This document shows, piece after piece, positions 3,501 through 47,703 of a stretch of 64,000 nt of DNA. Location of the stretch: NCBI RefSeq assembly GCF_013122565.1, contig NZ_CP053258.1; one strand, given 5' to 3'. The stretch comes from Escherichia coli. Its GTDB lineage: Bacteria; Pseudomonadota; Gammaproteobacteria; Enterobacterales; Enterobacteriaceae. Both the position numbers and the translations under genes were made by a program. The notes under the pieces are model-generated. The model saw only the letters and a program-made list of their open reading frames with translations, did no database searches and was not told the DNA's origin. Position 1 is the first letter of the stretch. Every line of letters starts with the position of its first letter.

Positions 3501-5437
3501 TTCACCCGCTGTAACTCCTGGGTGTAACGATCCTGCGGAATACGGCGACCTTCCGCCTGCTGCTTATGGAACAGATACGCTTCCGCCAGCTGGTTGATGG
3601 CTTCGTTAAGGAACGCCGCGCTGCCCATCGCCGGTTCGCACACGGTGAGGTTTAAGATGGCGTCGGCTTTGGCGTGCGGATCGCTAATGGGATCAATCTG
3701 CTCCTTAAACAGTTCTTTCAGAGCATATTTAACCAGTGAGCGGGTCAGCACTTCCGGGGTGTAATAAGATGCAGATTTCTCACGGTCGCGCCCGGCCATA
3801 CGGTAGATAAAACTGCCTTTGCGGTGAATGCGCAGACTGCCGTCTTTCTCGTAGACCTTCTCGTCTTCGTGGTATTTGCCAATCTCATCCTTACTGACGA
3901 AGTAACCCGTCTCCAGCTCGTTAAACTCTTCCCCGGCTTTCTTCACCTCGTAGAGATCTTCGCTGGCGAAGAATCCGCGATAGGAGAGCAGCGCCTCATA
4001 CACCGCACCCAACTGGTTGATACCCAACTGGCGATAAGATATACGTCCACGGCGGTTAAAGCGCCCTTTGCCCGGGCGGCTTAACGACATCGCCTGGATA
4101 ATCTGTTGCAGGGTTTCGTTACGGAATACCACGCGGTTAAGAATGCGGGTGTTGTTGGCATCGAAAAGATGACTTTCCAGACGCGGGACGCTGAACTGAT
4201 GACTATGGATGGTGATCCGGTCGCCGCTCTCCAGGTCACTCTGCATTTTCACGCCGCCGTTGTAGCCTTCGCGCACCAGTTTAAACAGCATATTCAGGCT
4301 GTCGTGGAAGTAGCGCCCGTTGCGATCTTCTTCGCTGGTCAGCGGGATCATCTCCAGATCGCGCAACGTTTCCAGGCTGTAGCCCTGTAGATAGGTTTTG
4401 GCGGTCATTGGCGCATAACCCAGCTCCGGGCGCGCTTCAATGTAGAACAGGAACAGCAGGCGGTACATGTAACGCAGACATTCGCGGCTCAGTTCATCCG
4501 GGTCCACCGCACGGTTACCGGTATAGTTTGCCAGGCCACGGTCGATCAGATAATGCATCGCTTCGTTGCCCAGCAACTCAATGCTTTCGCGCAGGGCATA
4601 TTTCAGATCTTCCGAAACACCAAACGCATGTTTGTGCGAATTGTCATCCAGCGAGTCAAGATAAGGTGCCCCACTGCCCGGCAGCAGAGAATCTTTATGT
4701 AGCAACACCGCCGTCGCTTTCAGCGTATCCGTTTCACGACGACTTAAAATCTCTTCAAAATCAAAACGTAGCAGACGGTTTTGCGCCCACTTAGTACGGT
4801 CCAACAACAATAGCTGACGGTTACCGAGCAGCAGCACAAAACGCGGCGGTTCATTTTGGGTGAAGACCGCCGTAGAGAGCAGATCCTGCCAGCTGCGATA
4901 TTCACCGTTGGCTTTTTTGCGCAGGCTGTCGCGCTTATGTTTGTCGGTATCCGCCGGGAATTGCGCGGTCAGTAAGGAGAGCGCCAGCGGATCCAGCGTT
5001 CCTTCTTCCTGATCGTGTGCTTCAACAATCCACAGCCACGGGCTACCGTCAGTGCTGTTGTAACGCGCCAGTACCGGCAGTGGTGTATCGTCATCCAGCA
5101 TTTGGATCTGCGGCGTAATTTCGTAGCCCAGCGCCTTTAACAATGGCTGCCAGCGATTACGTTGATCGGCCAGACGCTGCGGGATCTGACGCTGTTTTTC
5201 GTGCTCGGCAAGTTTGCGGAAAAACTCAGTCGCCAGACTGTTAAACTGGTTCCACGGAGCGCGGTATCCCGGCTCCACGTCTTTGCCCTGTTCACGAGCG
5301 GCACGTTCCGCTTCACGCGCTGCATTTTCCTGGGCTATCCAGGGTTCCAGCACATCGCGGATATCACTGGTGAAAACCTCACCCAAATAATGGTTAGAGT
5401 AAAATTCGTTTTCGTTATTAATACCGACCAGCGCCAT
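521..5437 (-). CDS. Large N6-adenine DNA methyltransferase (1638 aa), DISARM DrmMI-like
   Basis: ORF track; AdoMet-binding-like motif EPAMGSAAFL and catalytic NPPW motif; sits between SNF2 helicase and DEAD-box helicase genes. Confidence 0.7.
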   Translation of the reverse strand: MALVGINNENEFYSNHYLGEVFTSDIRDVLEPWIAQENAAREAERAAREQGKDVEPGYRAPWNQFNSLATEFFRKLAEHEKQRQIPQRLADQRNRWQPLLKALGYEITPQIQMLDDDTPLPVLARYNSTDGSPWLWIVEAHDQEEGTLDPLALSLLTAQFPADTDKHKRDSLRKKANGEYRSWQDLLSTAVFTQNEPPRFVLLLGNRQLLLLDRTKWAQNRLLRFDFEEILSRRETDTLKATAVLLHKDSLLPGSGAPYLDSLDDNSHKHAFGVSEDLKYALRESIELLGNEAMHYLIDRGLANYTGNRAVDPDELSRECLRYMYRLLFLFYIEARPELGYAPMTAKTYLQGYSLETLRDLEMIPLTSEEDRNGRYFHDSLNMLFKLVREGYNGGVKMQSDLESGDRITIHSHQFSVPRLESHLFDANNTRILNRVVFRNETLQQIIQAMSLSRPGKGRFNRRGRISYRQLGINQLGAVYEALLSYRGFFASEDLYEVKKAGEEFNELETGYFVSKDEIGKYHEDEKVYEKDGSLRIHRKGSFIYRMAGRDREKSASYYTPEVLTRSLVKYALKELFKEQIDPISDPHAKADAILNLTVCEPAMGSAAFLNEAINQLAEAYLFHKQQAEGRRIPQDRYTQELQRVKMYIADNNVFGVDLNPVAVELAEVSLWLNAISGDAFVPWFGYQLHCGNSLVGARRQVFNKSELTYKKAKDPSWLNSEPVELAMNTPREETQIFHFLLPDGGMANYSDKTVKQRYPDDFKALDSWRKEFIKSFAGHEIADVQRISEKVEALWNTYRQQLKAERLKTADSYPVWPAENSEQTRSSLSSKDETFSGRLEDNSAYQKLRWVMDYWCALWFWPIDKADELPDRGTWLFEIETLLDGIVITEKVTEVAEHTTGDLFAEEGLLREESSLFSGAGRLKTEVLFRHLPRLAIVDALRKQHRFFHWDLEFCDLFAERGGFDLMLGNPPWLKVEWQEAGVLGDYEPEFVLRKLSASKLATLRIDTFNQIPALEAAWRSEYEGCEGMQNFLNAQQNYPVLRGVQTNLYKCFLPQAWRLGAQKGVSGFLHPEGIYDDPKGGQLRAAVYPRLRAHFQFQNQHMLFPIGHRVKFSINIYTASPNQSVGFINIANLFSAKTIELCLAHDGSGEVGGIKDDETGSWNEAGHQSRILTVGMERLALFATLYDEEGTPDLEARLPALHAEPLVSVLEKFAKQPKRLGDLQGQYLSLEMWHETNQQSDGTIERHTQFPEDASQWILSGPHFYVGTPLYKTPREICTEKGHYDCLDLLTLPDDYLPRTNYIPACDAQEYAKRTPRVSWKEQDEDEPRKVTDYYRFVNREMIGPSSERTLITTIVPPGVSHINTCLGTAFKDTQLLLDYFSMTLSVPLDYRVKSTGMGHANTSLINQLPVLTNDAYRTALHSRALCLVSLVRSYADLWQSCYTPDFNTQRWSRDLPQLPQDFFTNLTPEWQRNCALRSDYSRRQALVEIDVLVAQALGLTLEELLTIYRVQFPVMRQYEADTWYDQNGRIIFTPSKGLVGVGLPRTARKADLKNGFVFNVDSPEWTGGDCTDQAIGWDDVKHLKTGTVSVTFDDYTRSDEGERRTVTWQAPFIKPDREDDYKVAWAFFAQDKESA

Positions 5438-18195: not shown

Positions 18196-18403
18196 CCTGC
18201 CTTCCTTTGATACAATTCGTAACAGGTTACTATCATCATAAAAAAGCTCAACCCGATGAACTCGCTAAAAATGAGACAAATCATTTATATCTCGAAAAAA
18301 CTTGTTACAATCATGAGCGCTACACCGAACTTAACCATATAAATTATGTGTGTTTTGTTTATTTTTTAAACGATTACAACTATCCATTATTTACACAGGT
18401 ATC

Positions 18404-20059
18404 AAAATGTTAGCGCAGCTTTTTGAGCAGTTGTTTCAATCGATAGACTCTACACTGATCACCAATATTTTCATCTGGGCTGTTATATTCGTATTTTTAT
18501 CAGCGTGGTGGTGTGACAAAAAAAATATACATAGTAAGTTTAGAGAATATGCTCCAACCTTAATGGGGGCATTAGGTATTCTGGGTACTTTCATTGGTAT
18601 TATTATTGGTTTACTCAATTTTAATACCGAAAGTATTGATACCAGCATCCCCGTATTATTAGGTGGCCTAAAAACAGCATTCATTACAAGCATTGTAGGT
18701 ATGTTTTTTGCCATTTTATTTAATGGAATGGATGCTTTCTTTTTTGCCAATAAACGAAGTGCGTTAGCAGAAAATAACCCTGAATCTGTTACACCTGAAC
18801 ATATCTATCATGAATTAAAAGAGCAGAACCAGACTCTGACTAAATTAGTCTCGGGTGTTAACGGTGATAGTGAAGGTTCTCTTATTGCTCAAATAAAATT
18901 ACTACGTACTGAGATTAGCGATTCTTCGCAGGCACAATTAGCTAATCACACTCATTTCAGTAATAAGCTTTGGGAACAACTTGAACAATTTGCAGATCTA
19001 ATGGCAAAAGGTGCTACAGAACAAATTATTGATGCTTTGCGACAAGTTATTATTGATTTTAATGAAAATTTAACTGAACAGTTTGGTGAAAACTTTAAAG
19101 CACTTGATGCCTCTGTAAAAAAACTTGTTGAGTGGCAGGGAAATTATAAAACGCAAGTTGAGCAGATGTCAGAACAGTATCAACAAAGTGTCGAGTCCCT
19201 GGTTGAAACAAAAACTGCGGTTGCAGGGATTTGGGAAGAATGTAAAGAAATTCCTCTGGCTATGTCTGAACTGCGTGAAGTGCTTCAGGTGAACCAACAT
19301 CAAATCAGCGAACTCTCCCGCCATTTAGAAACCTTTGTCGCCATCCGCGATAAAGCAACAACCGTATTACCTGAAATACAGAACAAAATGGCTGAAGTGG
19401 GTGAACTGCTGAAATCCGGAGCTGCAAATGTTAGTGCATCTCTTGAGCAAACCAGCCAGCAAATACTTCTTAATGCAGATTCAATGCGCGTGGCCCTGGA
19501 TGAAGGTACCGAAGGATTCAGACAATCGGTTACCCAAACACAACAAGCATTTGCCTCGATGGCACATGATGTCAGCAATTCCTCCGAAACCCTAACCAGC
19601 ACGTTAGGTGAAACAATTACTGAAATGAAACAAAGTGGTGAAGAATTCCTGAAATCACTAGAGTCGCACTCGAAAGAATTGCATAGAAATATGGAACAAA
19701 ATACTACGAATGTGATTGATATGTTCAGTAAGACTGGTGAAAAGATTAACCATCAACTATCCAGTAATGCCGATAATATGTTTGATTCAATCCAGACATC
19801 ATTTGATAAGGCAAGTGCAGGGTTGACTTCTCAAGTCAGAGAATCAATTGAAAAATTTGCTCTATCCATCAACGAGCAGTTACATGCTTTTGAGCAAGCA
19901 ACTGAACGTGAAATGAACCGTGAAATGCAATCATTAGGTAATGCTCTGCTTTCAATCAGCAAAGGTTTTGTCGGTAACTATGAAAAACTTATTAAAGATT
20001 ACCAAATAGTTATGGGGCAGTTACAAGCATTAATTTCTGCTAATAAACATCGCGGGTAA
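18404..20059 (+). CDS. MotA/ExbB-like membrane protein with long coiled-coil tail; Zorya ZorA-like
   Basis: N-terminal hydrophobic helices followed by long helical Q/E/L-rich tail; ORF track starts at GTG 18350, first ATG at 18404. Confidence 0.65.
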   Translation, partial: KMLAQLFEQLFQSIDSTLITNIFIWAVIFVFLSAWWCDKKNIHSKFREYAPTLMGALGILGTFIGIIIGLLNFNTESIDTSIPVLLGGLKTAFITSIVGMFFAILFNGMDAFFFANKRSALAENNPESVTPEHIYHELKEQNQTLTKLVSGVNGDSEGSLIAQIKLLRTEISDSSQAQLANHTHFSNKLWEQLEQFADLMAKGATEQIIDALRQVIIDFNENLTEQFGENFKALDASVKKLVEWQGNYKTQVEQMSEQYQQSVESLVETKTAVAGIWEECKEIPLAMSELREVLQVNQHQISELSRHLETFVAIRDKATTVLPEIQNKMAEVGELLKSGAANVSASLEQTSQQILLNADSMRVALDEGTEGFRQSVTQTQQAFASMAHDVSNSSETLTSTLGETITEMKQSGEEFLKSLESHSKELHRNMEQNTTNVIDMFSKTGEKINHQLSSNADNMFDSIQTSFDKASAGLTSQVRESIEKFALSINEQLHAFEQATEREMNREMQSLGNALLSISKGFVGNYEKLIKDYQIVMGQLQALISANKHRG

Positions 20060-20065
20060 TCGATC

Positions 20066-20773
20066 ATGGATAAGATTATAGGGAAACAATTACCTAAAAA
20101 AGATCAAGATAATGAACATTGGGTATCCATGTCAGACCTAATGGCAGGGCTGATGATGGTTTTTATGTTCATATCTATTGCTTATATGCACTACGTACGT
20201 ATTGAAAAAGAAAAAATTAAAGAAGTTGCCGTAGCCTACGAGAATGCTCAGTTACAGCTTTATAATGCTCTGGATATTGAGTTTGCAAAGGATTTACAAG
20301 ACTGGGATGCAGAGATCGATAAACAGACTCTGGAGGTTCGATTTAAATCACCGGATGTTTTATTTGGCTTAGGAAGCACAGAGCTAAAACCAAAGTTTAA
20401 ACTCATTCTTGACGACTTTTTTCCTCGCTACCTAAAAGTTCTAGATAATTATCAGGAACATATTACTGAAGTCCGCATTGAAGGTCACACAAGTACTGAC
20501 TGGACAGGAACAACGAATCCTGATATTGCTTATTTTAATAATATGGCACTATCACAAGGTCGTACACGTGCAGTATTACAATACGTTTATGACATAAAAA
20601 ATATCGCGACACACCAACAATGGGTTAAAAGTAAATTTGCCGCAGTAGGTTATTCATCTGCACATCCCATTCTTGATAAAACCGGCAAGGAGGATCCTAA
20701 TCGCTCTCGTCGTGTCACCTTCAAAGTTGTAACAAATGCCGAGTTGCAGATTAGAAAGATTATTCAGGAGTAA
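20066..20773 (+). CDS. MotB/OmpA-like protein with peptidoglycan-binding domain; Zorya ZorB-like
   Basis: N-terminal TM helix; OmpA-like C-terminus (NxxLSQGRTRAV...NRSRRVTF); 6 nt after zorA-like stop. Confidence 0.65.
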   Translation: MDKIIGKQLPKKDQDNEHWVSMSDLMAGLMMVFMFISIAYMHYVRIEKEKIKEVAVAYENAQLQLYNALDIEFAKDLQDWDAEIDKQTLEVRFKSPDVLFGLGSTELKPKFKLILDDFFPRYLKVLDNYQEHITEVRIEGHTSTDWTGTTNPDIAYFNNMALSQGRTRAVLQYVYDIKNIATHQQWVKSKFAAVGYSSAHPILDKTGKEDPNRSRRVTFKVVTNAELQIRKIIQE

Positions 20774-20776
20774 GAG

Positions 20777-21880
20777 ATGAAATTATCTATCGACATTTCA
20801 GAACTTATTCAATTAGGGAAGAAAATGTTACCAGAAGGAGTCGATTTTTTTCTGGATGAATCCCCTATTGACTTTGATCCTATAGATATTGAGTTATCAA
20901 CGGGTAAAGAAGTTAGTATCGAAGATCTTGACCCTGGTAGCGGGCTTATCTCTTATCATGGCCGCCAGGTTCTTTTATATATTCGGGACCATTCAGGGCG
21001 TTATGATGCGGCTATCGTAGATGGCGAAAAAGGAAAACGTTTTCATATTGCCTGGTGCAGAACTCTTGATGAAATGCGCCATAAAAATCGATTTGAAAGG
21101 TATCATGCAACTAACCGCATAGATGGTTTATTCGAAATTGATGATGGTTCAGGTCGGAGCCAGGATGTTGATTTACGGGTATGTATGAATTGCCTCGAAC
21201 GGCTTAATTATAAAGGAAGTATTGATAAACAAAGAAAAAGAGAGATTTTTAAATCATTCTCATTAAATGAGTTTTTTTCAGATTATAGTACCTGTTTTCG
21301 TCATATGCCTAAGGGTATCTATGACAAAACAAATAGTGGGTATGTCGAAAACTGGAAGGAAATATCTAAAGAAATACGAGAAAAGGCAAATTATGTTTGT
21401 AATGATTGTGGCGTGAATTTATCAACCGCCAAAAACTTGTGCCATGTCCATCATAAAAATGGCATCAAATATGATAATCACCATGAAAACCTTCTTGTTC
21501 TGTGCAAGGATTGCCATCGAAAACAGCCCCTCCACGAAGGTATATTCGTTACCCAAGCAGAGATGGCTATCATTCAACGTTTACGTTCCCAACAAGGGTT
21601 ATTAAAAGCAGAATCCTGGAATGAAATATATGACCTGACTGATCCATCAGTGCATGGTGATATTAATATGATGCAACATAAAGGCTTTCAACCTCCTGTT
21701 CCTGGGTTAGATCTTCAAAACTCAGAACATGAAATTATTGCAACCGTAGAAGCTGCATGGCCAGGCCTTAAAATTGCAGTTAACCTTACTCCCGCCGAAG
21801 TCGAAGGATGGAGAATATATACCGTGGGTGAGCTGGTTAAAGAAATACAAACCGGAGCCTTTACGCCAGCAAAATTGTAA
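20777..21880 (+). CDS. HNH endonuclease-domain protein; Zorya type II ZorE-like
   Basis: HNH motif CNDCG...CHVHHKNG...NLLVLCKDCH; third gene of MotA-like/MotB-like cassette. Confidence 0.6.
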   Translation: MKLSIDISELIQLGKKMLPEGVDFFLDESPIDFDPIDIELSTGKEVSIEDLDPGSGLISYHGRQVLLYIRDHSGRYDAAIVDGEKGKRFHIAWCRTLDEMRHKNRFERYHATNRIDGLFEIDDGSGRSQDVDLRVCMNCLERLNYKGSIDKQRKREIFKSFSLNEFFSDYSTCFRHMPKGIYDKTNSGYVENWKEISKEIREKANYVCNDCGVNLSTAKNLCHVHHKNGIKYDNHHENLLVLCKDCHRKQPLHEGIFVTQAEMAIIQRLRSQQGLLKAESWNEIYDLTDPSVHGDINMMQHKGFQPPVPGLDLQNSEHEIIATVEAAWPGLKIAVNLTPAEVEGWRIYTVGELVKEIQTGAFTPAKL

Positions 21881-22090: not shown

Positions 22091-23197
22091 ATGAATAAAG
22101 CAATAACGGCGCTTGCTATCATGATGGCTTCATTTGCCGCAAACGCGTCTGTATTACCGGAAACTCCTGTGCCATTTAAAAGTGGTACCGGAGCAATTGA
22201 TAACGATACTGTCTACATTGGTTTAGGTAGCGCAGGTACGGCATGGTACAAGCTGGATACACAGGCCAAAGATAAAAAATGGACAGCGTTAGCTGCATTC
22301 CCTGGTGGACCAAGAGATCAAGCAACCTCGGCATTTATTGATGGCAATCTTTATGTGTTTGGCGGCATTGGCAAAAACAGCGAGGGCTTGACTCAGGTAT
22401 TTAATGACGTACACAAATACAACCCCAAAACCAATAGCTGGGTTAAATTGATGTCGCACGCACCGATGGGCATGGCGGGTCATGTGACTTTTGTACACAA
22501 CGGCAAGGCTTATGTTACTGGCGGTGTTAACCAGAATATCTTCAATGGCTATTTTGAAGATCTCAACGAGGCTGGAAAAGATTCAACCGCTATAGATAAA
22601 ATCAACGCCCACTATTTTGACAAAAAAGCAGAAGATTATTTCTTCAATAAGTTTCTGTTGTCTTTTGATCCCTCAACACAGCAATGGAGTTACGCTGGCG
22701 AATCTCCCTGGTACGGAACGGCTGGTGCGGCGGTTGTGAATAAAGGTGATAAAACCTGGCTTATTAATGGCGAAGCCAAACCAGGATTGCGAACGGATGC
22801 CGTATTTGAACTTGATTTCACCGGTAATAATTTAAAATGGAATAAGCTTGATCCCGTCTCATCACCAGATGGCGTCGCTGGCGGTTTTGCGGGGATAAGC
22901 AATGATTCTCTTATATTTTCCGGAGGGGCCGGATTCAAAGGTTCACGAGAAAATTACCAGCACGGAAAGAACTATGCGCATGAAGGCCTGAAAAAATCAT
23001 ATAGCACTGATATTCATCTTTGGCATAACGGGAAATGGGATAAATCGGGTGAATTATCGCAAGGTCGGGCCTACGGAGTATCATTGCCCTGGAATAATAG
23101 TTTATTAATTATTGGCGGTGAAACTGCAGGCGGCAAAGCAGTGACTGATTCAATTTTGATCTCTGTGAAGGATAATAAAGTCACAGTACAAAACTAA
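22091..23197 (+). CDS. nanM: N-acetylneuraminate epimerase (sialic acid mutarotase), Kelch-repeat periplasmic protein
   Basis: Signal peptide plus Kelch repeats; near-identical to remembered E. coli NanM (YjhT); RBS AGGAGA upstream. Confidence 0.9.
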   Translation: MNKAITALAIMMASFAANASVLPETPVPFKSGTGAIDNDTVYIGLGSAGTAWYKLDTQAKDKKWTALAAFPGGPRDQATSAFIDGNLYVFGGIGKNSEGLTQVFNDVHKYNPKTNSWVKLMSHAPMGMAGHVTFVHNGKAYVTGGVNQNIFNGYFEDLNEAGKDSTAIDKINAHYFDKKAEDYFFNKFLLSFDPSTQQWSYAGESPWYGTAGAAVVNKGDKTWLINGEAKPGLRTDAVFELDFTGNNLKWNKLDPVSSPDGVAGGFAGISNDSLIFSGGAGFKGSRENYQHGKNYAHEGLKKSYSTDIHLWHNGKWDKSGELSQGRAYGVSLPWNNSLLIIGGETAGGKAVTDSILISVKDNKVTVQN

Positions 23198-23261
23198 CGC
23201 TTCAGGGCCCCAGTAAAGGGGCCCTGCTATCAATTTGTCATTTGAATTACGCGAAAATTAT

Positions 23262-24242
23262 ATGAACGCAATAATATCGCCCGATTATTACTATGTTCTT
23301 ACCGTTGCTGGTCAGTCTAATGCCATGGCGTATGGCGAAGGACTGCCATTACCGGACAGGGAAGATGCGCCTCATCCCAGAATTAAACAATTAGCGAGAT
23401 TTGCGCATACGCATCCCGGAGGCCCGTCATGTCACTTTAACGACATTATTCCACTGACTCACTGCCCACACGATGTTCAGGATATGCAGGGTTATCACCA
23501 TCCACTGGCAACGAATCATCAAACACAGTACGGCACCGTTGGGCAGGCACTGCATATTGCACGGAAATTACTGCCCTTCATTCCTGATAATGCAGGGGTT
23601 CTCATCGTTCCATGTTGTCGTGGCGGCTCGGCTTTTACCGCAGGCAGCGAAGGGACATATTCAGAACGGCACGGAGCCAGCCATGATGCTTGTCGTTGGG
23701 GAACGGATACCCCGCTCTACCAGGATTTAGTCAGCAGAACGCGAGCCGCACTGGCAAAAAATCCGCAGAACAAATTCCTCGGCGTATGCTGGATGCAAGG
23801 CGAATTTGACTTAATGACCAGTGACTACGCGTCACACTCTCAACACTTTAATCATATGGTTGAAGCCTTTCGTAGGGATCTAAAACAATACCATTCTCAG
23901 CTTAATAATATTACTTACGCGCCGTGGTTTTGCGGCGATACCACCTGGTACTGGAAAGAAAATTTCCCTCATGCGTATGAAGCTATTTATGGCAATTATC
24001 AAAATAATGTTTTAGCCAATATTATTTTCGTGGACTTCCAGCAACAAGGTGCAAAAGGGCTAACGAACGCGCCTGATGAAGACCCGGACGATTTAAGCAC
24101 GGGATATTACGGTTCAGCGTACCGGTCACCGGAGAACTGGACGACGGCACTGCGAAGCAGTCATTTCAGCTCAGCAGCCCGTCGGGGGATTATTTCTGAC
24201 AGATTTGTAGAAGCAATTTTGCAGTTTTGGCGCGATAGGTGA
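23262..24242 (+). CDS. nanS: N-acetyl-9-O-acetylneuraminate esterase
   Basis: Matches remembered E. coli NanS (YjhS) beginning MNAIISPDYYY; ORF track extends to an upstream TTG at 23235. Confidence 0.8.
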   Translation: MNAIISPDYYYVLTVAGQSNAMAYGEGLPLPDREDAPHPRIKQLARFAHTHPGGPSCHFNDIIPLTHCPHDVQDMQGYHHPLATNHQTQYGTVGQALHIARKLLPFIPDNAGVLIVPCCRGGSAFTAGSEGTYSERHGASHDACRWGTDTPLYQDLVSRTRAALAKNPQNKFLGVCWMQGEFDLMTSDYASHSQHFNHMVEAFRRDLKQYHSQLNNITYAPWFCGDTTWYWKENFPHAYEAIYGNYQNNVLANIIFVDFQQQGAKGLTNAPDEDPDDLSTGYYGSAYRSPENWTTALRSSHFSSAARRGIISDRFVEAILQFWRDR

Positions 24243-24384
24243 GCGTTCATTAATTTGATTTATTTGCATCCATCAGTGCTTTTAACTCCTCCGGCGTAAA
24301 CGGTGGTTTGCGTCGGTGCAACATCGCATTGCAATTAGGGCACACAGGTAGCAAAAAAACAAATGAGATCAAGGTAATATATCT

Positions 24385-24639
24385 TTGCTTGCAGGCTTGA
24401 ACAGCAGAAAATTTGCGAGCATGATCGCAATTATTTCACTGCCAGGGATATCAATGGCTTCCAGTAAATCGCTACAGCAGGCAATTGCCAATATAAAAAT
24501 CTGGCACAAGGGTGAACAGCGCGCGCCGCATAAGCCATTGTTATTGCTATACGTATTAGCGGGATACCTGCATGGACATCCGCGCCTTTTCGATTATTGT
24601 AGTGGAACAGTCTACGAGGATGCAGTTCGAAGTGAGTAA
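24385..24639 (+). CDS. Small ORF (84 aa), possibly a truncated remnant of an ancestral gene next to nanS
   Basis: ORF track only; lies between nanS and island boundary; no motif recognised. Confidence 0.25.
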   Translation: MLAGLNSRKFASMIAIISLPGISMASSKSLQQAIANIKIWHKGEQRAPHKPLLLLYVLAGYLHGHPRLFDYCSGTVYEDAVRSE

Positions 24640-24915
24640 GTAAAGGTTGCTGGAAACGATCAATGCCGCCATACAATAATATTTGAGGATCAACAATGAG
24701 TAATAAAAATTACGAGAGTCACCGCAAAGCAATTGTTAGTAAAGGTATACCCCCCACTCTATTAAATAGGCTCACCAATTCGGATATTCAGGTGATCAAT
24801 ACCTTCTTAACACGAGTGAGCAAACTGGAACTATCTCAACAAGAGAAAGACTGGATCATAAAAATCATCTCTATGGTTTAGAGAATTTCAGCCTTGTAGC
24901 CTTTCAAGGGTTTTG

Positions 24916-25098
24916 TGTGGGTACAAACATTATCGAATCGGGATATAGCCGCAGCTGTAGCTGTACCCACATCAGTAAGTTGATGTAGGTTGACTTAGGT
25001 TGAGCGAAAAATAGCGAAAAGCCTTGTGTGGCGCGGATTTCAGTCACAAAAAAGACGTCCGTTGACGTCTATTGATGTTCCGATGGTGCGAAGGCCGC
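24916..25098. repeat. Degenerate copy of the leuX-proximal region (integrase upstream region, terminator-like hairpin and tRNA 3' end remnant); distal att boundary of the leuX island
   Basis: About 75 percent identity by eye to 47446-47630; TGGTGCGAAGGCCG at 25084-25097 resembles the tRNA 3' end; hairpin GACGTC-CGTT-GACGTC at 25054-25069. Confidence 0.6.
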
Positions 25099-25277
25099 AC
25101 CGCTCTTTCAAATATAATTCATTGAAATTAATGTGATTTATTAACCCAAAAATCACTTTGTATACTCACATGTATACTCAGCGCGATTCTCTGAGAAATC
25201 AACAACCTGAATAATCAGTCGGTACTTTAACGCTTCACAATGTTTATAGGAATTTCAAGTAAAGACAATGCTGCATA

Positions 25278-26225
25278 TCAAGCATTCAGGATGGCTAGCG
25301 CTAAGCTCCTAAACCTGGAGTAAGCCTCATCCCATGTGATCTTTCGCTCTCCATACACCATTGGCGAAACAAACTGCTGATAGCGCATCTCGTAGAGAGG
25401 ATTGTTCGCCAACTCATCCAGTCCCATTTTTAGCTCATCAACTGGAGATGCGCAAAACTGCGGGTACTGGTTGCCGTAACGCTGAATGTCCTGCTCAATA
25501 GTTTGTTGAACAAAATCAACGAGCTGACTCATATCAACATGACTCGTCTCAACAATACAGTTTGTATCGTAGATATGACGTACCAGCGATGCATCATCAA
25601 ATCGCTCAACATCTCGCACAACTGCCGCAGTACGACGTAACATCGCCACCAGCTTTTCTGCCTGTGTGCTAATGATAGTTGCACATGGAAACGCTGAAAC
25701 AATAGCCGCTTTTCCCGTGATCCCTGTTACCAGTGAATGAATATCCCGTAATTCAGAAGGCTCCAGTAACTTCGCTTCCATCAATTCCAGCCGGATAAAA
25801 GGACGCAAACAAGGTGCCTGCACCACTCGCTGTGGATAACGAACAGGTATGTCATTATAACGATATTCATCCCGCGTCACTTTTGGGTAATCATCATCAA
25901 AATTGAACACACCCGATGAAGCTATTGCACTGGAAACTGCCTGAACAATTTCTTTACGGGTATTTTTTCGCTGAGTGCGGGAAAGTGCCTGAAATGCATC
26001 CTTAGGCACCAGTTTGATATCCACATCTTCCGACATGCGATTAAGTGCGACACCTGATTTTGCCAGAGCGGTTCCTCCGGCAAACACCAATTGATGAGTA
26101 TCGAACACCAGAGGTTTAAGCAATTGCAAAAGCTCAACGATATAGTGATCTTTTTCCACAATTGCGACAGACTCAATACCAAGCGCGTCAGCCACTTCAG
26201 AAAAAAGAGTGGTTAAATCATCCAT
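25278..26225 (-). CDS. Nucleotidyltransferase-fold toxin, AbiEii-like (DUF1814-like)
   Basis: N-terminal region with GG..A....D.D motifs typical of minimal nucleotidyltransferases; overlaps upstream small gene by 8 nt. Confidence 0.6.
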   Translation of the reverse strand: MDDLTTLFSEVADALGIESVAIVEKDHYIVELLQLLKPLVFDTHQLVFAGGTALAKSGVALNRMSEDVDIKLVPKDAFQALSRTQRKNTRKEIVQAVSSAIASSGVFNFDDDYPKVTRDEYRYNDIPVRYPQRVVQAPCLRPFIRLELMEAKLLEPSELRDIHSLVTGITGKAAIVSAFPCATIISTQAEKLVAMLRRTAAVVRDVERFDDASLVRHIYDTNCIVETSHVDMSQLVDFVQQTIEQDIQRYGNQYPQFCASPVDELKMGLDELANNPLYEMRYQQFVSPMVYGERKITWDEAYSRFRSLALAILNA

Positions 26226-26613
26226 TTAATCTGCTGTTCCCTACAGATAATACGCGTTTAAAACGCCGGGGGGTTTTTATCTCGGGTGAAGCTGGGATCT
26301 GCGTAGAAGTACCGCTATTGTATGCCTGCGTTGCGCCAGCAAAACGATAGCGTACTTTCAGGCGTTCCAGCGTTTCGACAATCACCGCTGAAGAGCCTCC
26401 GGGAGCCGCTGGCATTACCTTGCCTGTAATACCGTTCCGCCGTGCTTTGGTATACACGCCATAACCAACCTTCAACAGTTGCCCTTCCCTGACAAGATCG
26501 CGCAATACCCGACCAACCTGATCGTAGCCTGCAATATCTTTAAAGTCGTCACGAGTGAATACGTAACGTTTAGAACGTTTCAGTCGTGACTGAATGCGTG
26601 CTTTTATCGTCAT
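26218..26613 (-). CDS. AbiEi-like antitoxin/transcriptional regulator (131 aa from ATG with strong RBS)
   Basis: ORF track start is at 26682, but ATG at 26613 is preceded by AGGAGG; basic N-terminus; stop overlaps toxin start. Confidence 0.5.
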   Translation of the reverse strand: MTIKARIQSRLKRSKRYVFTRDDFKDIAGYDQVGRVLRDLVREGQLLKVGYGVYTKARRNGITGKVMPAAPGGSSAVIVETLERLKVRYRFAGATQAYNSGTSTQIPASPEIKTPRRFKRVLSVGNSRLNG

Positions 26614-26645
26614 ATTCGCCTCCTGAGTCATTGCATAAAGAGTAG

Positions 26646-26689
26646 CAAAAATACGACATTTTAGATAGCAAACATACGACATTCATTTT
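26646..26689. promoter_or_regulatory. Two direct repeats of ATACGACATT in the promoter of the AbiEi-like gene
   Basis: Copies at 26651-26660 and 26674-26683, 23 bp apart; same core as inverted repeats at 35.2-35.3 kb. Confidence 0.4.
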
Positions 26690-32173: not shown

Positions 32174-32392
32174 ATGAACAATCAACCGAATACCGATACT
32201 GACCTGATGAATGACAAACTGGTGACGATGGCATTTATTACCACGTTTACTGGCCTGACCGACAAATGGTTTTATAAACTGATTAGTGAAGGCAAGTTTC
32301 CAAAGCCTATCAAACTGGGGCGTAGTTCCCGCTGGCGGGAAAGTGAAGTTAAACGCTGGCTGACGGAACGTATTGCAGAATCCCGCTATTAA
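32174..32392 (+). CDS. alpA: AlpA-family transcriptional regulator / excisionase-like protein
   Basis: 72 aa; typical AlpA sequence (LTDKWFYKLISEGKFPKPIKLGRSSRWRESEVKRWL). Confidence 0.8.
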   Translation: MNNQPNTDTDLMNDKLVTMAFITTFTGLTDKWFYKLISEGKFPKPIKLGRSSRWRESEVKRWLTERIAESRY

Positions 32393-40818: not shown

Positions 40819-41990
40819 GCAGGAAAGAATATTCCTTTATTGAAGTATGTGATATCCAAGGAGGAACTCAGCCTCCAAAGGACGAGTTTGTTTATGAAAA
40901 AAAAGATGGATATATAAGGCTTTTACAAATCCAAGATTTTAAAAGAGAGGATAAAACTGTTTATATTAAGGATAGGCATACTCTGAAAAAATGTAATGAC
41001 GATGATATTCTAATAGGTAGATATGGAGCATCTATTGGAAAAATTCTCTCTGGGTTATCAGGAGCATATAACGTTGCTTTGGTTAAAGCCATCCCTGATT
41101 TAAAAAAAATAAACAAGAGATTTTTATGGCATTTTTTAAACAGTGTAGTATTTCAAGAATTTATAAAAAATGTTTCTACTCGAGCCGCTCAAGCTGGGTT
41201 TAATAAGGATGACTTAGCAAAGCTAAAAATATATTTACCATCTTTAAATGAGCAAGTGAAAATTGCTTCTGTTCTTGATTTATCTGATGCCATACGCAAA
41301 AAACGAGAACAAACTATCAAACTGGCTGATGATTTTTTGCGTGCTACGTTTTTGGAGATGTTTGGTGATCCTGTTGAAAACCCTAAAGGATGGAAAAAGG
41401 ATAAAATAAAAAAAGGTGTGTTAGGCATTGCTTCAGGATGGAGTGCCACTGGAGAAAATATACCCTGTAAATCTGATGAATTTGGCGTGTTGAAAATCAG
41501 CTCGGTGACTTCTGGAGTATTCAAACCAGAAGAAAATAAAGTGGTAGCCTGTGAATCCATTCCCGCTTCAAAAAAACTTATTCACCCTAAAAAGGGAGAT
41601 TTGCTATTTAGTCGCGCAAATACCAGAGAGTTAGTTGCTGCGATATGCATGGTTCATCAGGATTATGACAACCTTTTCCTTCCTGATAAACTATGGTCTA
41701 TTAAGTTAAATCATAAGCTATTGCTACCAGAGTTCTTTCTCATCTTAATACAAAATGAAAAAGTCCGTGAGTTACTAACAAAACAAGCGACCGGAACAAG
41801 TGGGTCGATGCTAAATATATCTAAAAATAAATTTGAAGAAACTGAAATTATCTTCCCAGAGATCAATGTTCAAAAAGATTTTTGCAATACTTTCAGAAAA
41901 ACAATAAATTTGAAAACAAAGTTAATAAAAAGTAATGAATTAGCTAATGAGTCATTTAATTCATTATCTCAAAAGGTATTTCAGCAATGA
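40815..41990 (+). CDS. hsdS: Type I R-M specificity subunit
   Basis: 391 aa with two target-recognition-domain halves; GTG start overlapping hsdM stop (GTGA) with GGAGGGGA RBS; AT-rich. Confidence 0.8.
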   Translation: MSRKEYSFIEVCDIQGGTQPPKDEFVYEKKDGYIRLLQIQDFKREDKTVYIKDRHTLKKCNDDDILIGRYGASIGKILSGLSGAYNVALVKAIPDLKKINKRFLWHFLNSVVFQEFIKNVSTRAAQAGFNKDDLAKLKIYLPSLNEQVKIASVLDLSDAIRKKREQTIKLADDFLRATFLEMFGDPVENPKGWKKDKIKKGVLGIASGWSATGENIPCKSDEFGVLKISSVTSGVFKPEENKVVACESIPASKKLIHPKKGDLLFSRANTRELVAAICMVHQDYDNLFLPDKLWSIKLNHKLLLPEFFLILIQNEKVRELLTKQATGTSGSMLNISKNKFEETEIIFPEINVQKDFCNTFRKTINLKTKLIKSNELANESFNSLSQKVFQQ

Positions 41991-43678
41991 AAATTGTTTA
42001 TACACCTGATCGATCCTGGAGAGAAATCCCACCAGCAAAACCAGAACTTGGTGATGTTTTATCTCTGAGCAGTAATAATTGGGATGACTATGGATATAAA
42101 ACTACTCTAAACGCAAAAATATACATTAAGAATCAATCTATTTCATTTGATTTTTCAATTAAATTATTAATTGAAAATATCGATAACACGGCAATAAAGC
42201 TAGATGAATTATGTAAAGATGGATGGGATGGAATATTCCCCATCCCTAATACTAACTATATAGCTCTTCCATCTGATATTGATTTTTATCAAATACTCAT
42301 ATCTAAAATAGGTGAGGAATCAACAGTCAATCTTCTGAATGATCTGAACGATGCAGGTTTCAATAAAAATGTTTACCATAATGAAATATCTAACAGACTC
42401 ATAGAACAAGATGCCTTTAAAACGTCATTACTCCGAGAAAGTGGAGCAAATAAAGCCTATCTAGACGGTTATCTGATATTCCAAAATATTCACGCAGAAA
42501 TAAGAAACTTTCAGTTAAATATTTTAACGAAAAAAGGAGGTGTAAATAAGATACCATTTAAATTTGAATCTAATTTATTGCCTTATGATATTAATGTTAT
42601 TATTGGCCCGAATGGGATTGGTAAATCTCATTGCCTGAAATCACTTGTTGAATATTGGTTGCAAATAGGAATGGGGGAACAACGATTACTTGAAAAGAAT
42701 AAGCATACTCCATTTGATGAACGACCTAACATAAGTAAGCTTGTTCTTGTTTCTTATAGCCCTTTTGAAGAGTTCAGCCTAGATCTAGAAAAAGACAATT
42801 TACAAGATAAAAAGGCATATCAATATTTTGGTTTCAGGCAAATGAGAGATAATGGGACAATTGGTATCAGTCGAAACTTACCAGCTTTAAATTCAAGTGA
42901 GTCATTACTTGAAATGATATCTGATGATAAGAAATACCAATTCATTGAAAATCGAATAAATAAGCTCAACTCTGTCGATTCTGCACTCAAATCTGCTATT
43001 AGCTATGATTATTGTGTTCTAAGATTATCTCCAGAAGATAACTCATCTTATCTCGGGAAAGATATTGTCATAATTGATGGCGAAAAATATCTCCCTGCAG
43101 TAAATATTGTAAAATGGGCTGATCATTTAGATTTAATAAGGGATTCTATACTACTCAATGATGGTGTAATCTTTGTTAAAGATGGGGAAATTGTAAATCT
43201 TAGTTCTGGCCAACGATTATTTGTATATATAGCTATTAATGTTGTCGGTGCAATGAAAGAAAATAGCTTAATTGTGATTGATGAACCTGAATTATTTTTA
43301 CATCCTAACCTTGAAATAGAATTCATTGGGCTACTAAAAAAATTACTTAAATCATTTCGCTCTAAAGCTATTCTAGCTACTCATTCCCTATCTATCACAC
43401 GTGAAGTACCGTCAAAATGTGTACATATATTCCGCTACAAGGATGACGAATTTGAAATAGTCCCCCCGCCATTTGAAACATTTGGCGGTAATGTTCAGAG
43501 AATTTCTTCTTATGTTTTCGGCGATAAATCGATCTCTAAGCCTTTTGATGAATGGCTTGAGATGCAGCTTCAAGCTATTAAAGATCCTGAAAAATTAATT
43601 GAAATGCTAAATGAAGAAATTAATGAAGAAATAATCATGAAAATCATGAGTTTAGGGAAAAAGTATCATGGTCACTAA
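41987..43678 (+). CDS. ABC/AAA-type ATPase (563 aa) with an about 200 aa N-terminal domain of unknown function; Septu PtuA-like
   Basis: Walker A GPNGIGKSH near residue 208; Walker B-like VIDEPELFLHP; ATGA overlap with hsdS stop. Confidence 0.55.
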   Translation: MKIVYTPDRSWREIPPAKPELGDVLSLSSNNWDDYGYKTTLNAKIYIKNQSISFDFSIKLLIENIDNTAIKLDELCKDGWDGIFPIPNTNYIALPSDIDFYQILISKIGEESTVNLLNDLNDAGFNKNVYHNEISNRLIEQDAFKTSLLRESGANKAYLDGYLIFQNIHAEIRNFQLNILTKKGGVNKIPFKFESNLLPYDINVIIGPNGIGKSHCLKSLVEYWLQIGMGEQRLLEKNKHTPFDERPNISKLVLVSYSPFEEFSLDLEKDNLQDKKAYQYFGFRQMRDNGTIGISRNLPALNSSESLLEMISDDKKYQFIENRINKLNSVDSALKSAISYDYCVLRLSPEDNSSYLGKDIVIIDGEKYLPAVNIVKWADHLDLIRDSILLNDGVIFVKDGEIVNLSSGQRLFVYIAINVVGAMKENSLIVIDEPELFLHPNLEIEFIGLLKKLLKSFRSKAILATHSLSITREVPSKCVHIFRYKDDEFEIVPPPFETFGGNVQRISSYVFGDKSISKPFDEWLEMQLQAIKDPEKLIEMLNEEINEEIIMKIMSLGKKYHGH

Positions 43679-44594
43679 GTTACAACTTCCCGAATATGAC
43701 TCTATTAAGGTACTCCGAACCATCATTTCAGAAAGAGAGAGATATAAAGATTTCTATGATAGCTTATCGAATGATTGGATAGCACATGTAGAAAGCTATT
43801 TGGAACATCATGGTGATCCACGCTTTATTACACCTCTCGACCTCTCTCTGTATATTTCAGAAGAATTAGTACAAAATGAAGAAGAGAAAACAACTGATGC
43901 CAATAGGCATATATCGGCGCAAGAAAGACTGACGCAAAAAAGGAAACAAACTCTAATTAATTTATACTCTCCTGCTGAGGGGAAAACTCCCTACGATATT
44001 CTTGATACTTTAAGACGAGGACATGGCCTGTTATTTTGCCCATGTTGTGGGGAACCAGGAAAGCCGACAACGTTAGACCATTATTTGCCTAAAACTATCT
44101 ATCCTGAATTAGCTATAATTATTGCTAACTTAACGCCGATGTGTAATGAATGTCAGCAGAATAAAAGTTCTGATTATTTTGATGAGGATGGTAACAAAAT
44201 TTACATACATCCTTATTTTGATCCTATTGAACAAGTTAATTTAATCATTGATATAGAAGAACCCTATGCTACTCCAACATTCAGGCTAAACATTACTGAG
44301 GATGGTGATGATAATGAGATTTATGAATTGCTAAGGCGACATATAAATGGTGTTAAATTTTTAGAGCGATTCGATGAGTTTTGTCGAAATGAATATATGG
44401 CATTATTGCGCACAATGTCATTAGAACGTCAAGATGCTCAACCGGATAGAGCGTCAAGAATAATTTGTCGATTCAAACGCCAATATGAGGGTCAGTCTCC
44501 AAATAGATGGGAGGCTATTTTCTATAGAGGGATATTGAATAATGCCGACCTACTTAATTATCTAGATCATGGAAACTTGCCTGATTTTACATAA
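43668..44594 (+). CDS. HNH nuclease-domain protein (308 aa); Septu PtuB-like
   Basis: HNH motif CPCCG...LDHYLPK...NLTPMCNECQQNK; start overlaps ATPase gene by 11 nt with AGGGAAAAAG RBS. Confidence 0.55.
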   Translation: MVTKLQLPEYDSIKVLRTIISERERYKDFYDSLSNDWIAHVESYLEHHGDPRFITPLDLSLYISEELVQNEEEKTTDANRHISAQERLTQKRKQTLINLYSPAEGKTPYDILDTLRRGHGLLFCPCCGEPGKPTTLDHYLPKTIYPELAIIIANLTPMCNECQQNKSSDYFDEDGNKIYIHPYFDPIEQVNLIIDIEEPYATPTFRLNITEDGDDNEIYELLRRHINGVKFLERFDEFCRNEYMALLRTMSLERQDAQPDRASRIICRFKRQYEGQSPNRWEAIFYRGILNNADLLNYLDHGNLPDFT

Positions 44595-46150: not shown

Positions 46151-47419
46151 TCACTCGCCATTACCCCGATTGATCTTCGCATAGTCAAACGGCGTAATCG
46201 CTCTCTCCCGATTGGCATCCAGAAAATCAGCCCACCACTGCAACATCAGCTTGCGTTCATCCAGGTGTTCCGCTTTATGGATATACGCCGCCCTCACTGA
46301 ATTGCGTTCCATATGGCTCATCTGCCTTTCCACCGCATCCTTCGACCATAGTCCTGACTCAATTAGCGAACTACAGGCCATTGTGCGGAAACCGTGACCA
46401 CAAACTTCAACCTTAGTGTCATAGCCCATCACCCGTAGCGCACTGTTTACGGTGTTCTCGCTCATGGGCTTACGCGGATCGTGATCGCCAATAAAAATCA
46501 GCTCATGCTCACCACAGAACTGCTTTATCTGCTTCAGGATCGCCAACGCCTGCTTTGAAAGTGGCACCAGATGCGGTGTACGCATCTTTGATCCTCGCTG
46601 AGAATGTTTAACATCAGGAATGGGTTCACGTTCCGGTGGAATCGTCCACATCGACGTGTCGAAATCTATCTCCGACCAGCGGGCAAAACGTAGCTCGCTG
46701 GATCGAATAAAGATAAGCAGGGTAAGTTCGGTTGCCCAACGGGTTAATCGCCTTCCAGTATAGCTGTCTATTTTCTGAAGCAGTTCTGGAATACGCTTTA
46801 ACTCCAGAGCCGGGCGATGCTGTCGCTTGCCAGAAGCAACGGCTCCCGCCATCTCTTGAGCCGGGTTATAATCAATCAGTCCACTTTGCACAGCATAACG
46901 CATGATAGCCGTGGTACGTTGTTGGAGACGGGAAGCCACCTCAAGACGTCCAGATATCTCTACGGCTTTAATGGGAAGTAACAAATCACGGGTACTCAAT
47001 TCAGCAATATTACGTGTCCCAATCGCCGGAAAGACATTATCCTCCAGACTCTTTTTTACACGATTAGCATGATCTTCCGACCATTTTTGGTTGGTCACGA
47101 GCCACTCTCTGGCAACCTTCTCGAAAGTAATAATCTCTTTCGCCTGCTCTTCTTTCACAACACGCTTATGTTCGCGTGGATCGATACCAGCAGCTACCAG
47201 CTTTCTGGCCTCCTCCCTTTTCTTCCTGGCATCTGCCAGTGAAATTTCGGGGTAAACACCAAACGCCATCACATGCTGCTTGCCACCAAAACGAAAACGA
47301 AATCGCCAATATTTGGAGCCATTAGCATGTACCAGTAAAAACAGGCCATCACCATCAGATAGCGGGTTTGCATTATCTTCAGATTTTGCCGAACGGACTT
47401 TAGTATCAGTCAGAGCCAT
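46151..47419 (-). CDS. intB: P4-type tyrosine integrase
   Basis: 422 aa; typical P4 integrase N-terminus (MALTDTKVRSAK) and C-terminal catalytic region (HGFRT, Y); directly downstream of leuX 3' end. Confidence 0.9.
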   Translation of the reverse strand: MALTDTKVRSAKSEDNANPLSDGDGLFLLVHANGSKYWRFRFRFGGKQHVMAFGVYPEISLADARKKREEARKLVAAGIDPREHKRVVKEEQAKEIITFEKVAREWLVTNQKWSEDHANRVKKSLEDNVFPAIGTRNIAELSTRDLLLPIKAVEISGRLEVASRLQQRTTAIMRYAVQSGLIDYNPAQEMAGAVASGKRQHRPALELKRIPELLQKIDSYTGRRLTRWATELTLLIFIRSSELRFARWSEIDFDTSMWTIPPEREPIPDVKHSQRGSKMRTPHLVPLSKQALAILKQIKQFCGEHELIFIGDHDPRKPMSENTVNSALRVMGYDTKVEVCGHGFRTMACSSLIESGLWSKDAVERQMSHMERNSVRAAYIHKAEHLDERKLMLQWWADFLDANRERAITPFDYAKINRGNGE

Positions 47420-47582
47420 GATACTTCTCCTTCCATGTACCGCCGTGAGTATACAAACATTATCGAATCAGCATATATACTCAGTTATATACTCACAAGC
47501 GACTTGATGTGGGTTGACCCAGGTTGACTTCAGTTGAGGGGAAAATCGAGGAAAGCCTTGTGTAGCGCGGGTTTCAGGCATA

Positions 47583-47608
47583 AAAAAAGACCTCAGTTGA
47601 GGTCTATT
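47583..47608 (-). terminator. Rho-independent terminator of leuX
   Basis: Hairpin GACCTCA-ACT-GAGGTC followed by T-run on minus strand. Confidence 0.6.
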
Positions 47609-47618
47609 TACATACTTT

Positions 47619-47703
47619 TGGTGCCGAAGGCCGGACTCGAACCGGCACGTATTTCTACGGTTGATTTTGAATCAACTGCGTCTACCGATTTCGCCACTTC
47701 GGC
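47619..47703 (-). tRNA. leuX: tRNA-Leu (CAA)
   Basis: Reverse complement reads GCCGAAGTGGCGAAATCGGTAGACGCAGTTGATTCAAAATCAACCGTAGAAATACGTGCCGGTTCGAGTCCGGCCTTCGGCACCA (85 nt, CAA anticodon, CCA end). Confidence 0.95.

Follow-up and report, generated by a model that had tools for sequence, protein, structure and literature searches.

Island 2 and its arm-type repeats

The window, that is the whole stretch of 64,000 nucleotides from the Escherichia coli contig NZ_CP053258.1 that was analysed, contains an intact leuX gene, tRNA-Leu(CAA), which together with its current terminator forms the attL end of a genomic island (Table 1). A tyrosine integrase gene is found directly 3′ of leuX, and part of the tRNA 3′ end is repeated at the far boundary. 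The region between (25084-47618, 22.5 kb), which we call island 2, carries defence cargo. The Pfam domains Arm-DNA-bind_3 (4e-29), Phage_int_M and Phage_integrase are all present in its integrase, a tyrosine recombinase with an arm-binding domain and related to P4 Int. Identity amounts to 57.6% with P4 Int (97% of the length aligned) and to 80% with IntB of K-12; compared with the integrases of E. coli W it is 93% identical to the first and 77% identical to the second. The repeats on both arms are laid out as in P4, with two tandem copies on one arm and two tandem copies plus an inverted one on the other. In these features island 2 agrees with P4-type tRNA islands.

The outermost cargo of island 2 is the AbiE module. 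Further cargo comprises a type I restriction-modification system and a PDC-M01 pair, both detected with PADLOC. Annotation from close relatives, PADLOC and NCBIfam yielded only defence, toxin-antitoxin and CP4-type accessory genes (DUF932, RadC, YeeU/CbtA, DUF4942, AlpA). The small AlpA-family protein would be a candidate for the excision (directionality) factor of island 2. The PDC-M01 A/B candidate at 41987-44594 pairs an AAA ATPase of 563 aa with a partner of 308 aa (E 5e-239 and 1e-107) and is located directly downstream of the type I restriction-modification genes; with a GC content of about 32% this segment looks like a separately acquired module within island 2.

Table 1. Features of the leuX locus in the window; island 1 denotes the older leuX island proposed in the text
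Feature	Position	Strand	Details
Island-1 remainder	24454-24895	+	Codons 1-54 of a phosphorothioated-DNA restriction endonuclease (24454-24618) followed by 277 bp of unassigned DNA
Putative relic of the island-1 P′ (integrase-proximal) arm	24896-25083	-	72-73% identical to 47446-47630
Decayed island-1 arm-type sites, predicted	24917-24970	.	GTACCCAC, inverted at 24917-24924 and direct at 24963-24970
Intrinsic terminator in the relic	25047-25070	-	Hairpin AGACGTCAACGGACGTCT at 25070-25053, then TTTTTT (terminator scan)
attR core, pseudo-tRNA 3′ end	25084-25105	-	GAGCGGTGCGGCCTTCG-CACCA; leuX has GAGTCCGGCCTTCGGCACCA
Island-2 distal (P) arm	25106-25181	-	Two tandem 12-bp arm-type sites, predicted
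AbiE module	25278-26682	-	AbiEii 25278-26225, AbiEi 26218-26682; PADLOC E 5.5e-128, 5.3e-53
AlpA-family small DNA-binding protein	32174-32392	+	Pfam Phage_AlpA, E 3.9e-10
Island-2 tyrosine integrase, P4/IntB type	46151-47419	-	422 aa; ATG at 47419
Island-2 P′ arm-type sites, predicted	47445-47496	-	Two tandem 12-mers and one inverted copy
TTGA[TCG] repeats, P′ arm	47504-47538	.	Four copies with exact 10-bp spacing; read from sequence
leuX, tRNA-Leu(CAA)	47619-47703	-	ARAGORN; Rfam tRNA 59.4 bits; with the current terminator (47588-47605) = attL

The sequence TATACTCAS, i.e., TATACTCA followed by C or G, has exactly five matches in the 64 kb (25161+, 25173+, 47445-, 47476+ and 47488+), compared with 0.64 expected, and all five are at the ends of island 2. 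On the distal (P) arm they belong to the 12-mers CTGAGTATACAT (25181-25170) and GTGAGTATACAA (25169-25158), which are 52 nt away from the core. On the P′ arm the tandem 12-mers are GTGAGTATATAA (47496-47485) and CTGAGTATATAT (47484-47473), 122 nt from the core, and an inverted GTGAGTATACAA is present on the plus strand at 47446-47457, 26 nt upstream of the integrase ATG. An earlier sequence-only reading of this DNA had noticed the distal repeats at 25160-25181; they are present, and their units are adjusted here to the 12-mers 25158-25169 and 25170-25181. The same reading took the repeats at both ends for arm-type sites of the integrase, a prediction with which their number, orientation and spacing agree when compared with the P4 attP annotation.

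The tandem 12-mers are kept in the strains AR_0089, A30 and Z1323 though the distal arms otherwise diverge in the junction alignments. The variable bases of the motif shift together in every copy of one allele, as is expected if one protein domain reads the sites. Strain SZQ1 has an unrelated leuX island of the KpLE2 type (about 51 kb) with a K-12-type integrase. In this island the motif RTACCAWCA occurs twice at the distal end, where the repeat is ATACCAACAC in two copies, and three times, once inverted, beside the integrase; the first 50 kb of the SZQ1 sequence are without the partner arm and leuX, which lie in the next 50 kb. The attL of K-12 has the same three RTACCAWCA sites. With another motif at either end of an unrelated island, the motif is seen to track the island. 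Listed by allele the motifs are TGAGTATA for island 2, TG[TA]TGGTA, TG[CT]GGGTA and, for P4, TTGGGGGCA. We infer that the TATACTCA-type 12-mers are binding sites of the island-2 integrase. Such allele-specific motifs offer a simple means of pairing island ends with integrases in annotation.

The P′ arm contains a second set of repeats, TTGA[TCG], three of which are also found in the relic described below (24980-25004, with a 10-bp deletion). These repeats are kept across attL alleles having different arm-type sites. According to PMC7498355, helically phased sites are typical of directionality factors, and the TTGA repeats resemble them; possibly they are sites for such a factor, for example the AlpA-like protein. 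Between the arm repeats and the core of the distal arm, at about 25117-25129, there is also an IHF-like sequence, TTTCAATGAATTA, which agrees with the IHF consensus WATCAANNNNTTR in 12 of 13 positions and is a putative site by this likeness. In other genera the attR arms have a similar TTTCA[AG]T...TTA at the corresponding position. An exact-match search of viral contigs gave no match for the intact-core attP junction and none for the 24-bp tandem arm repeat.

The segment beyond the distal end

Outside the distal end of island 2 lies a segment which resembles the spacer between leuX and the integrase. In a global alignment of 24916-25098 with 47446-47630, 136 of 189 columns (72%) are identical. 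A blastn search against the whole window aligned 24922-25100 with 47452-47636 (73.3%, E 3.4e-26) and returned no other significant match. The local score of the pair is 82; 500 shuffles gave 10.2 ± 1.7 with a maximum of 21. The sequence-only reading had reported a remnant of about 75% identity at 24916-25098. The similarity is indeed significant in the pairwise comparison (E 3e-26), the figure being slightly too high, and the remnant exists, with its limits now set at 24896-25083 (188 bp); homology to the intact allele of E. coli W begins at 24896 and not at 24916. With at least 95% identity this relic is found in about 820 of 5426 complete E. coli genomes. A search of Rfam over 24300-25500 gave no RNA family.

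The terminator-like hairpin that had been seen in the remnant was found again by the terminator scan. Its counterpart is the active leuX terminator just 3′ of leuX (47605-47588). The stems of the two hairpins differ by one compensatory change, C:G to G:C, which suggests that selection once maintained the relic hairpin as a terminator. These observations support the view that the hairpin would be a former leuX terminator, provided by an older island.

The claim that the remnant has repeats of another type also holds. In the window the sequence GTACCCAC has two matches, both of them inside the relic (24917- and 24963+), and their positions are homologous to the active-arm TATACTCA sites at 47445 and 47488. 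A third site, at about 24945-24953, is a mutated copy, ATAGCCGCA, and a 6-bp insertion separates the tandem units. Where the relic sites fall, the intact allele of E. coli W has ATACCCGC, GTACCCGC and an inverted GTACCCAC; island-1 alleles in general carry RTACCCRC at the positions homologous to the active-arm sites. Together with the alignment, this supports the interpretation of the relic as part of an older leuX island, which we name island 1; the segment would formerly have served leuX as its trailer and the integrase gene as its leader.

The start of the island-1 integrase is expected near 24890, and the gene is gone. As had been noted from the sequence, there is no integrase beside the remnant: tblastn with two integrase alleles detected no fragment near the relic and matched 46154-47419 only. 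Other strains show what is missing. At leuX of E. coli W, two complete islands follow one another in the order leuX, integrase, cargo ending with AbiEi and AbiEii, junction, second integrase, cargo of the second island, HNH fragment and nanS. The second-island cargo consists of a Ser/Thr kinase, a HerA-domain helicase, HsdMS, McrBC and a phosphorothioated-DNA restriction endonuclease. The region 24896-25400 is 89.9% identical to the W junction, and the start codon of the second integrase in W is located about 6 bp beyond the boundary of the relic homology. Strain 98206 likewise has an intact second integrase, identical to that of W. In Z1323HEC0475 the island-1 integrase is split by IS100, and in AR_0089 and A30 an integrase stub alone is left; these two strains have in common with the window the allele-specific 6-bp insertion and 10-bp deletion in the arm. 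The island-1 integrase is therefore found in a series of states, from intact (W, 98206) over split (Z1323HEC0475) and stub (AR_0089, A30) to absent (the window).

In six E. coli junctions the distal arm of a newer island is joined to the integrase-side arm of an older one, as is characteristic of composite islands. An older component with its own integrase and distal att site is not found in the window, which therefore has to be regarded as the relic of a composite island and not as an intact one. A different island, of the KpLE2 type, abuts this relic with its distal arm in 619 genomes; being joined to different islands, the relic is a shared and old landmark. In K-12, neither the relic arm nor a recognisable attR was found within 15 kb of nanS. 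A stretch of 358 bp, 24892-25249, which comprises the relic and attR, is lacking in about 110 complete genomes of E. coli (in locus L001 at 7475). The junction of this deletion shows an 8-bp microhomology, GAATTTCA (24883-24890 and 25250-25257). With this stretch lost, the island would be locked at its site.

Left of the relic arm, the remainder of island 1 begins with a fragment of the endonuclease. By blastx it is 91% identical to residues 1-54 of the 290-aa island-1 enzyme of W, and it corresponds to the N-terminus of the NCBIfam family PT-DNA_restrict. The second island of W matches 23200-24597 with its nanS end at 97% identity, and the similarity runs into codons 1-54 of the endonuclease. 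Compared with W, about 21 kb are absent, from the integrase start to a point within the endonuclease, and are replaced by an AT-rich filler of 277 bp (24619-24895) with an ORF of 61 aa at 24696-24881. The filler is present in 970 E. coli genomes (at least 95% identity), always in the same context; it gave no NCBIfam match and no homologue in the fetched loci, and the only copies are those in E. coli in the identical context. No paired RTACCCRC sites of a distal arm of island 1 were found near nanS in W or in the window. When GTACCCAC was searched in both, the copies of the proximal arm alone were meaningful, and the looser pattern KTAYCCRC was uninformative. It is the integrase and the proximal arm that argue for island 1 having once been a mobile P4-type element. 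Further to the left, immediately beside nanM (22091-23197), a type II Zorya system (ZorA2, ZorB2 and ZorE, above the NCBIfam equivalog cut-offs) occupies 18350-21880. In E. coli W, Z0117EC0040, SZQ1 and K-12 this position is taken by nanC, which appears to have been replaced or lost in the window.

The island boundary and the short core

Read on the tRNA strand, the attR core is GGCCTTCG-CACCA compared with GGCCTTCGGCACCA in leuX and is one base shorter; the core on the leuX side is 47638-47619. The block to the left of the boundary (24860 to 25094/25100) is found with at least 95% identity in about 820 of the 5426 complete genomes, and the match ends there in every sampled case. The island-side block is found in 21 genomes and, among the matches listed, starts exactly at 25084. 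The two blocks overlap in TGGTGCGAAGG(CCGCAC) only, which is the tRNA-like core. Judged by these comparative data, the island boundary is fixed at 25084-25100, and comparison with other E. coli genomes thus places it where the sequence-only reading had put it. Base composition does not mark this boundary, both sides being AT-rich. A search of the window for further leuX-like 3′ ends with up to three mismatches matched leuX alone; the copy at attR was missed because of its indel.

The tRNA 3′ end at attR had been called degenerate. It is present at 25084-25105, but simple decay does not fit, as the short form recurs across genera. The base is missing in all six E. coli junctions that were aligned (among the short-core loci are L003 5225-5262 and L032/L033 at about 1500-1520), in KpLE2-type attRs joined to three unrelated downstream flanks and in 16 of 17 attR loci of other Enterobacterales genera, which include Pectobacterium, Cedecea, Citrobacter, Mixta, Kluyvera and Brenneria. 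The loci from other genera were retrieved with the 19-mer GAGTATACATGTGAGTATA, which gave 18 contig matches (L014-L031), 17 of which were kept. The rejected one, L016 from an archaeal MAG, is a chance match without a core. Contig L026 is labelled Lachnospiraceae, has an enterobacterial-type attR and is probably mis-binned. In 17 of 18 loci, the window counted, the spacing between the repeats and GGCCTTC is 64 nt, and the sequence of this spacer diverges. An integrase or integrase fragments lie just downstream of 4 of the 17 attR loci from other genera.

The flanks on both sides vary and the lack of the base does not, which is most simply explained if the distal arm of the island carries the short form. 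We consider it probable that the one-base-short end was brought in by the island arm rather than made by decay, and from this we infer that strand exchange would take place within GCACCA (25084-25089). The fuller proposal, that the short end is a conserved functional part of the distal arm and that exchange is limited to the six 3′-terminal bases of the tRNA gene (GCACCA), is put forward tentatively, and we would sooner bet against it than for it. If it were true, an incoming island would leave leuX untouched, become its trailer and terminator and push the previous arm outward; excision would restore leuX with the relic as its trailer. This would be a concrete site-specific mechanism of turnover for hotspot #37, and it might extend to the pheV islands. 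The junction of the excised circle is expected to be GGCCTTCGCACCAAAAGTATG, one base short, if the short form is arm-encoded, and GGCCTTCGGCACCAAAAGTATG if the base decayed after integration.

Two further observations concern the core and its surroundings. In SZQ1 (L003 5225-5250) the core 8-mer TGCGAAGG occurs three times in tandem compared with once in the window, LD91-1 and CE0011b; this triplication is a slippage-type expansion within the crossover region. In Mixta tenebrionis (L021, about 3740-3800) the core is followed by CACCATCGGAACATCAATAGACGTCAACGGACGTCTTTTT, nearly identical to the relic arm, and then by fragments of the C-terminal part of an integrase. By this similarity, an arm allele of the relic type lies next to the same island family in another genus.

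History of the junction and related systems

We regard the segment, with good though not complete confidence, as a composite attachment site resulting from tandem accretion at leuX. Island 1 would once have resided beside leuX, and its arm would have supplied the tRNA gene with a trailer and a terminator and the integrase with its arm-type sites and leader. The P4-type island 2 (25084-47618) would then have integrated into leuX and moved the arm of island 1 away by 22.5 kb, creating a junction in which the island-2 distal arm is followed by the core and the island-1 arm (25181-24896). A later deletion of island 1, extending approximately from the start codon of its integrase to codon 54 of the endonuclease near nanS, would have left only the 188-bp arm (24896-25083), which subsequently decayed. 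In an excised circle of island 2 both ends would be joined to a P4-like attP whose arms hold two and three sites, respectively. This reading is supported by what is observed, namely the homology of the relic, the distribution of the motifs, a geometry like that of P4, the boundary and, from strain to strain, the graded states of the integrase. The succession of islands at leuX with deletion of the earlier integrase, already suggested by the sequence-only reading, gains support from the graded integrase states across strains and from the homology of the relic. The order of the events and the present-day mobility of island 2 are deduced and should be taken as such.

The junction might also have been formed by homologous recombination between leuX island alleles, with cargo being swapped between conserved flanks, instead of by site-specific integration in this lineage. 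At high identity the exact junction of the window, i.e., the AbiE-type distal arm paired with this relic allele, occurs in 0 of the 5426 complete E. coli genomes, though each half does occur, and the 619 genomes pairing the same relic with a KpLE2-type arm also fit such a swap. For hotspot #37, turnover of the content has moreover been reported, in most cases with no mobile element that could be recognised (PMC10121019). The lineages, however, switch exactly at the att core, as is predicted for site-specific recombination. Furthermore, the 358-bp deletion in the roughly 110 genomes mentioned above is derived from the junction, so that the junction must have existed in their ancestor. Homologous recombination seems unlikely to us, and it bears on the history of the locus and not on the identity of its elements.

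We give much less credit to the explanation that 24896-25083 is the native trailer and terminator of leuX, displaced by island 2, and not a piece of an older island. A first integration at a tRNA 3′ end does leave the native trailer and terminator next to attR, and several other genera show just an attR, CACCA and a terminator hairpin with no integrase. In the window, however, the segment runs for about 190 bp up to the position of the integrase start codon of W and 98206 and has, exactly where they are expected, homologues of the three arm-type sites; in AR_0089 and A30 an integrase stub is still joined to this allele, and the left flank consists of fragments of island cargo without core genes. 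The idea that the leuX-integrase spacer was recently duplicated within the window, or that the resemblance is due to chance, has nothing more in its favour than the two similar copies in one window and can be practically dismissed, chance being excluded by the blastn E value of 3e-26 and a recent duplication being contradicted by the divergence of 27%, the allele-specific indels common to other strains and the presence of the relic in about 820 genomes.

Phage P4 is one of the closest known counterparts of island 2. The attP of P4 (GenBank X51522) shares with the window the target leuX, a core formed by the leuX 3′ end and an integrase with an arm-binding N-terminal domain. In the P4 annotation a pair of adjacent 12-bp arm repeats is separated by 53 nt from the 20-bp core GAGTCCGGCCTTCGGCACCA; after a further 112 nt, on the int side, come two more adjacent 12-bp repeats and then an inverted repeat at the start of int. 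The pattern of repeats is the same in the window, with distances of 52 nt instead of 53 nt on the P side and 122 nt instead of 112 nt on the P′ side. The 12-mers of both have the outer bases GTG.....ACAA in common and differ in the centre, which is AGTAT in the window and GGGGC in P4. The P4 attP has the full 20-bp core, whereas the attR core of the window is one base short. Unlike P4, island 2 carries defence cargo, and the replication and capsid-hijacking genes of P4 are not among its annotated genes.

Accretion of islands has been described for the asn-tDNA of Klebsiella, where composite islands arise in tandem with a long repeat between the component islands (PMC4891358). There, as in the window, the newer island displaces the older, and the repeat consists of the tRNA end and the integrase-side arm. 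The integrases of the components are related and distinct in both cases (77% identity for the window and W, 74% for Klebsiella; PMC4891358). In contrast to Klebsiella, the older component in the window is without its integrase and nearly all of its cargo, and the 188-bp arm remains.

The missing base also has a parallel. In pheV islands with a P4-type integrase, PMC11537424 gives an attR of CCGG-CACCA compared with CCGGGCACCA, with one G missing before CACCA; in the window CCTTCG-CACCA stands against CCTTCGGCACCA. The pheV islands differ in the tRNA gene and in the cargo, and a term search of that paper gave no arm-type sites.

The locus itself is known as hotspot #37, which is described as anchored by leuX and an arm-type integrase and as the most occupied of 41 E. 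coli hotspots (PMC12707154). In the original survey the mode of movement of its systems was not readily determined (PMC10121019). The same locus, from ahr-leuX to nanS-fim, is occupied in K-12 by KpLE2 (cryptic prophage PR-Y, intB), also with an IntB-type integrase and defence cargo. K-12 has a pseudogenised intB and RTACCAWC arm sites, whereas in the window both att ends can be identified. The two att ends with their putative integrase-binding repeats, together with the relic, support stacking followed by deletion as one route of turnover. We conclude that the window is a fresh example of the known process of tandem accretion, clear and ordinary, which leaves the understanding of tRNA-borne islands unchanged; as a well-resolved case it is of use in annotation and will not surprise specialists.
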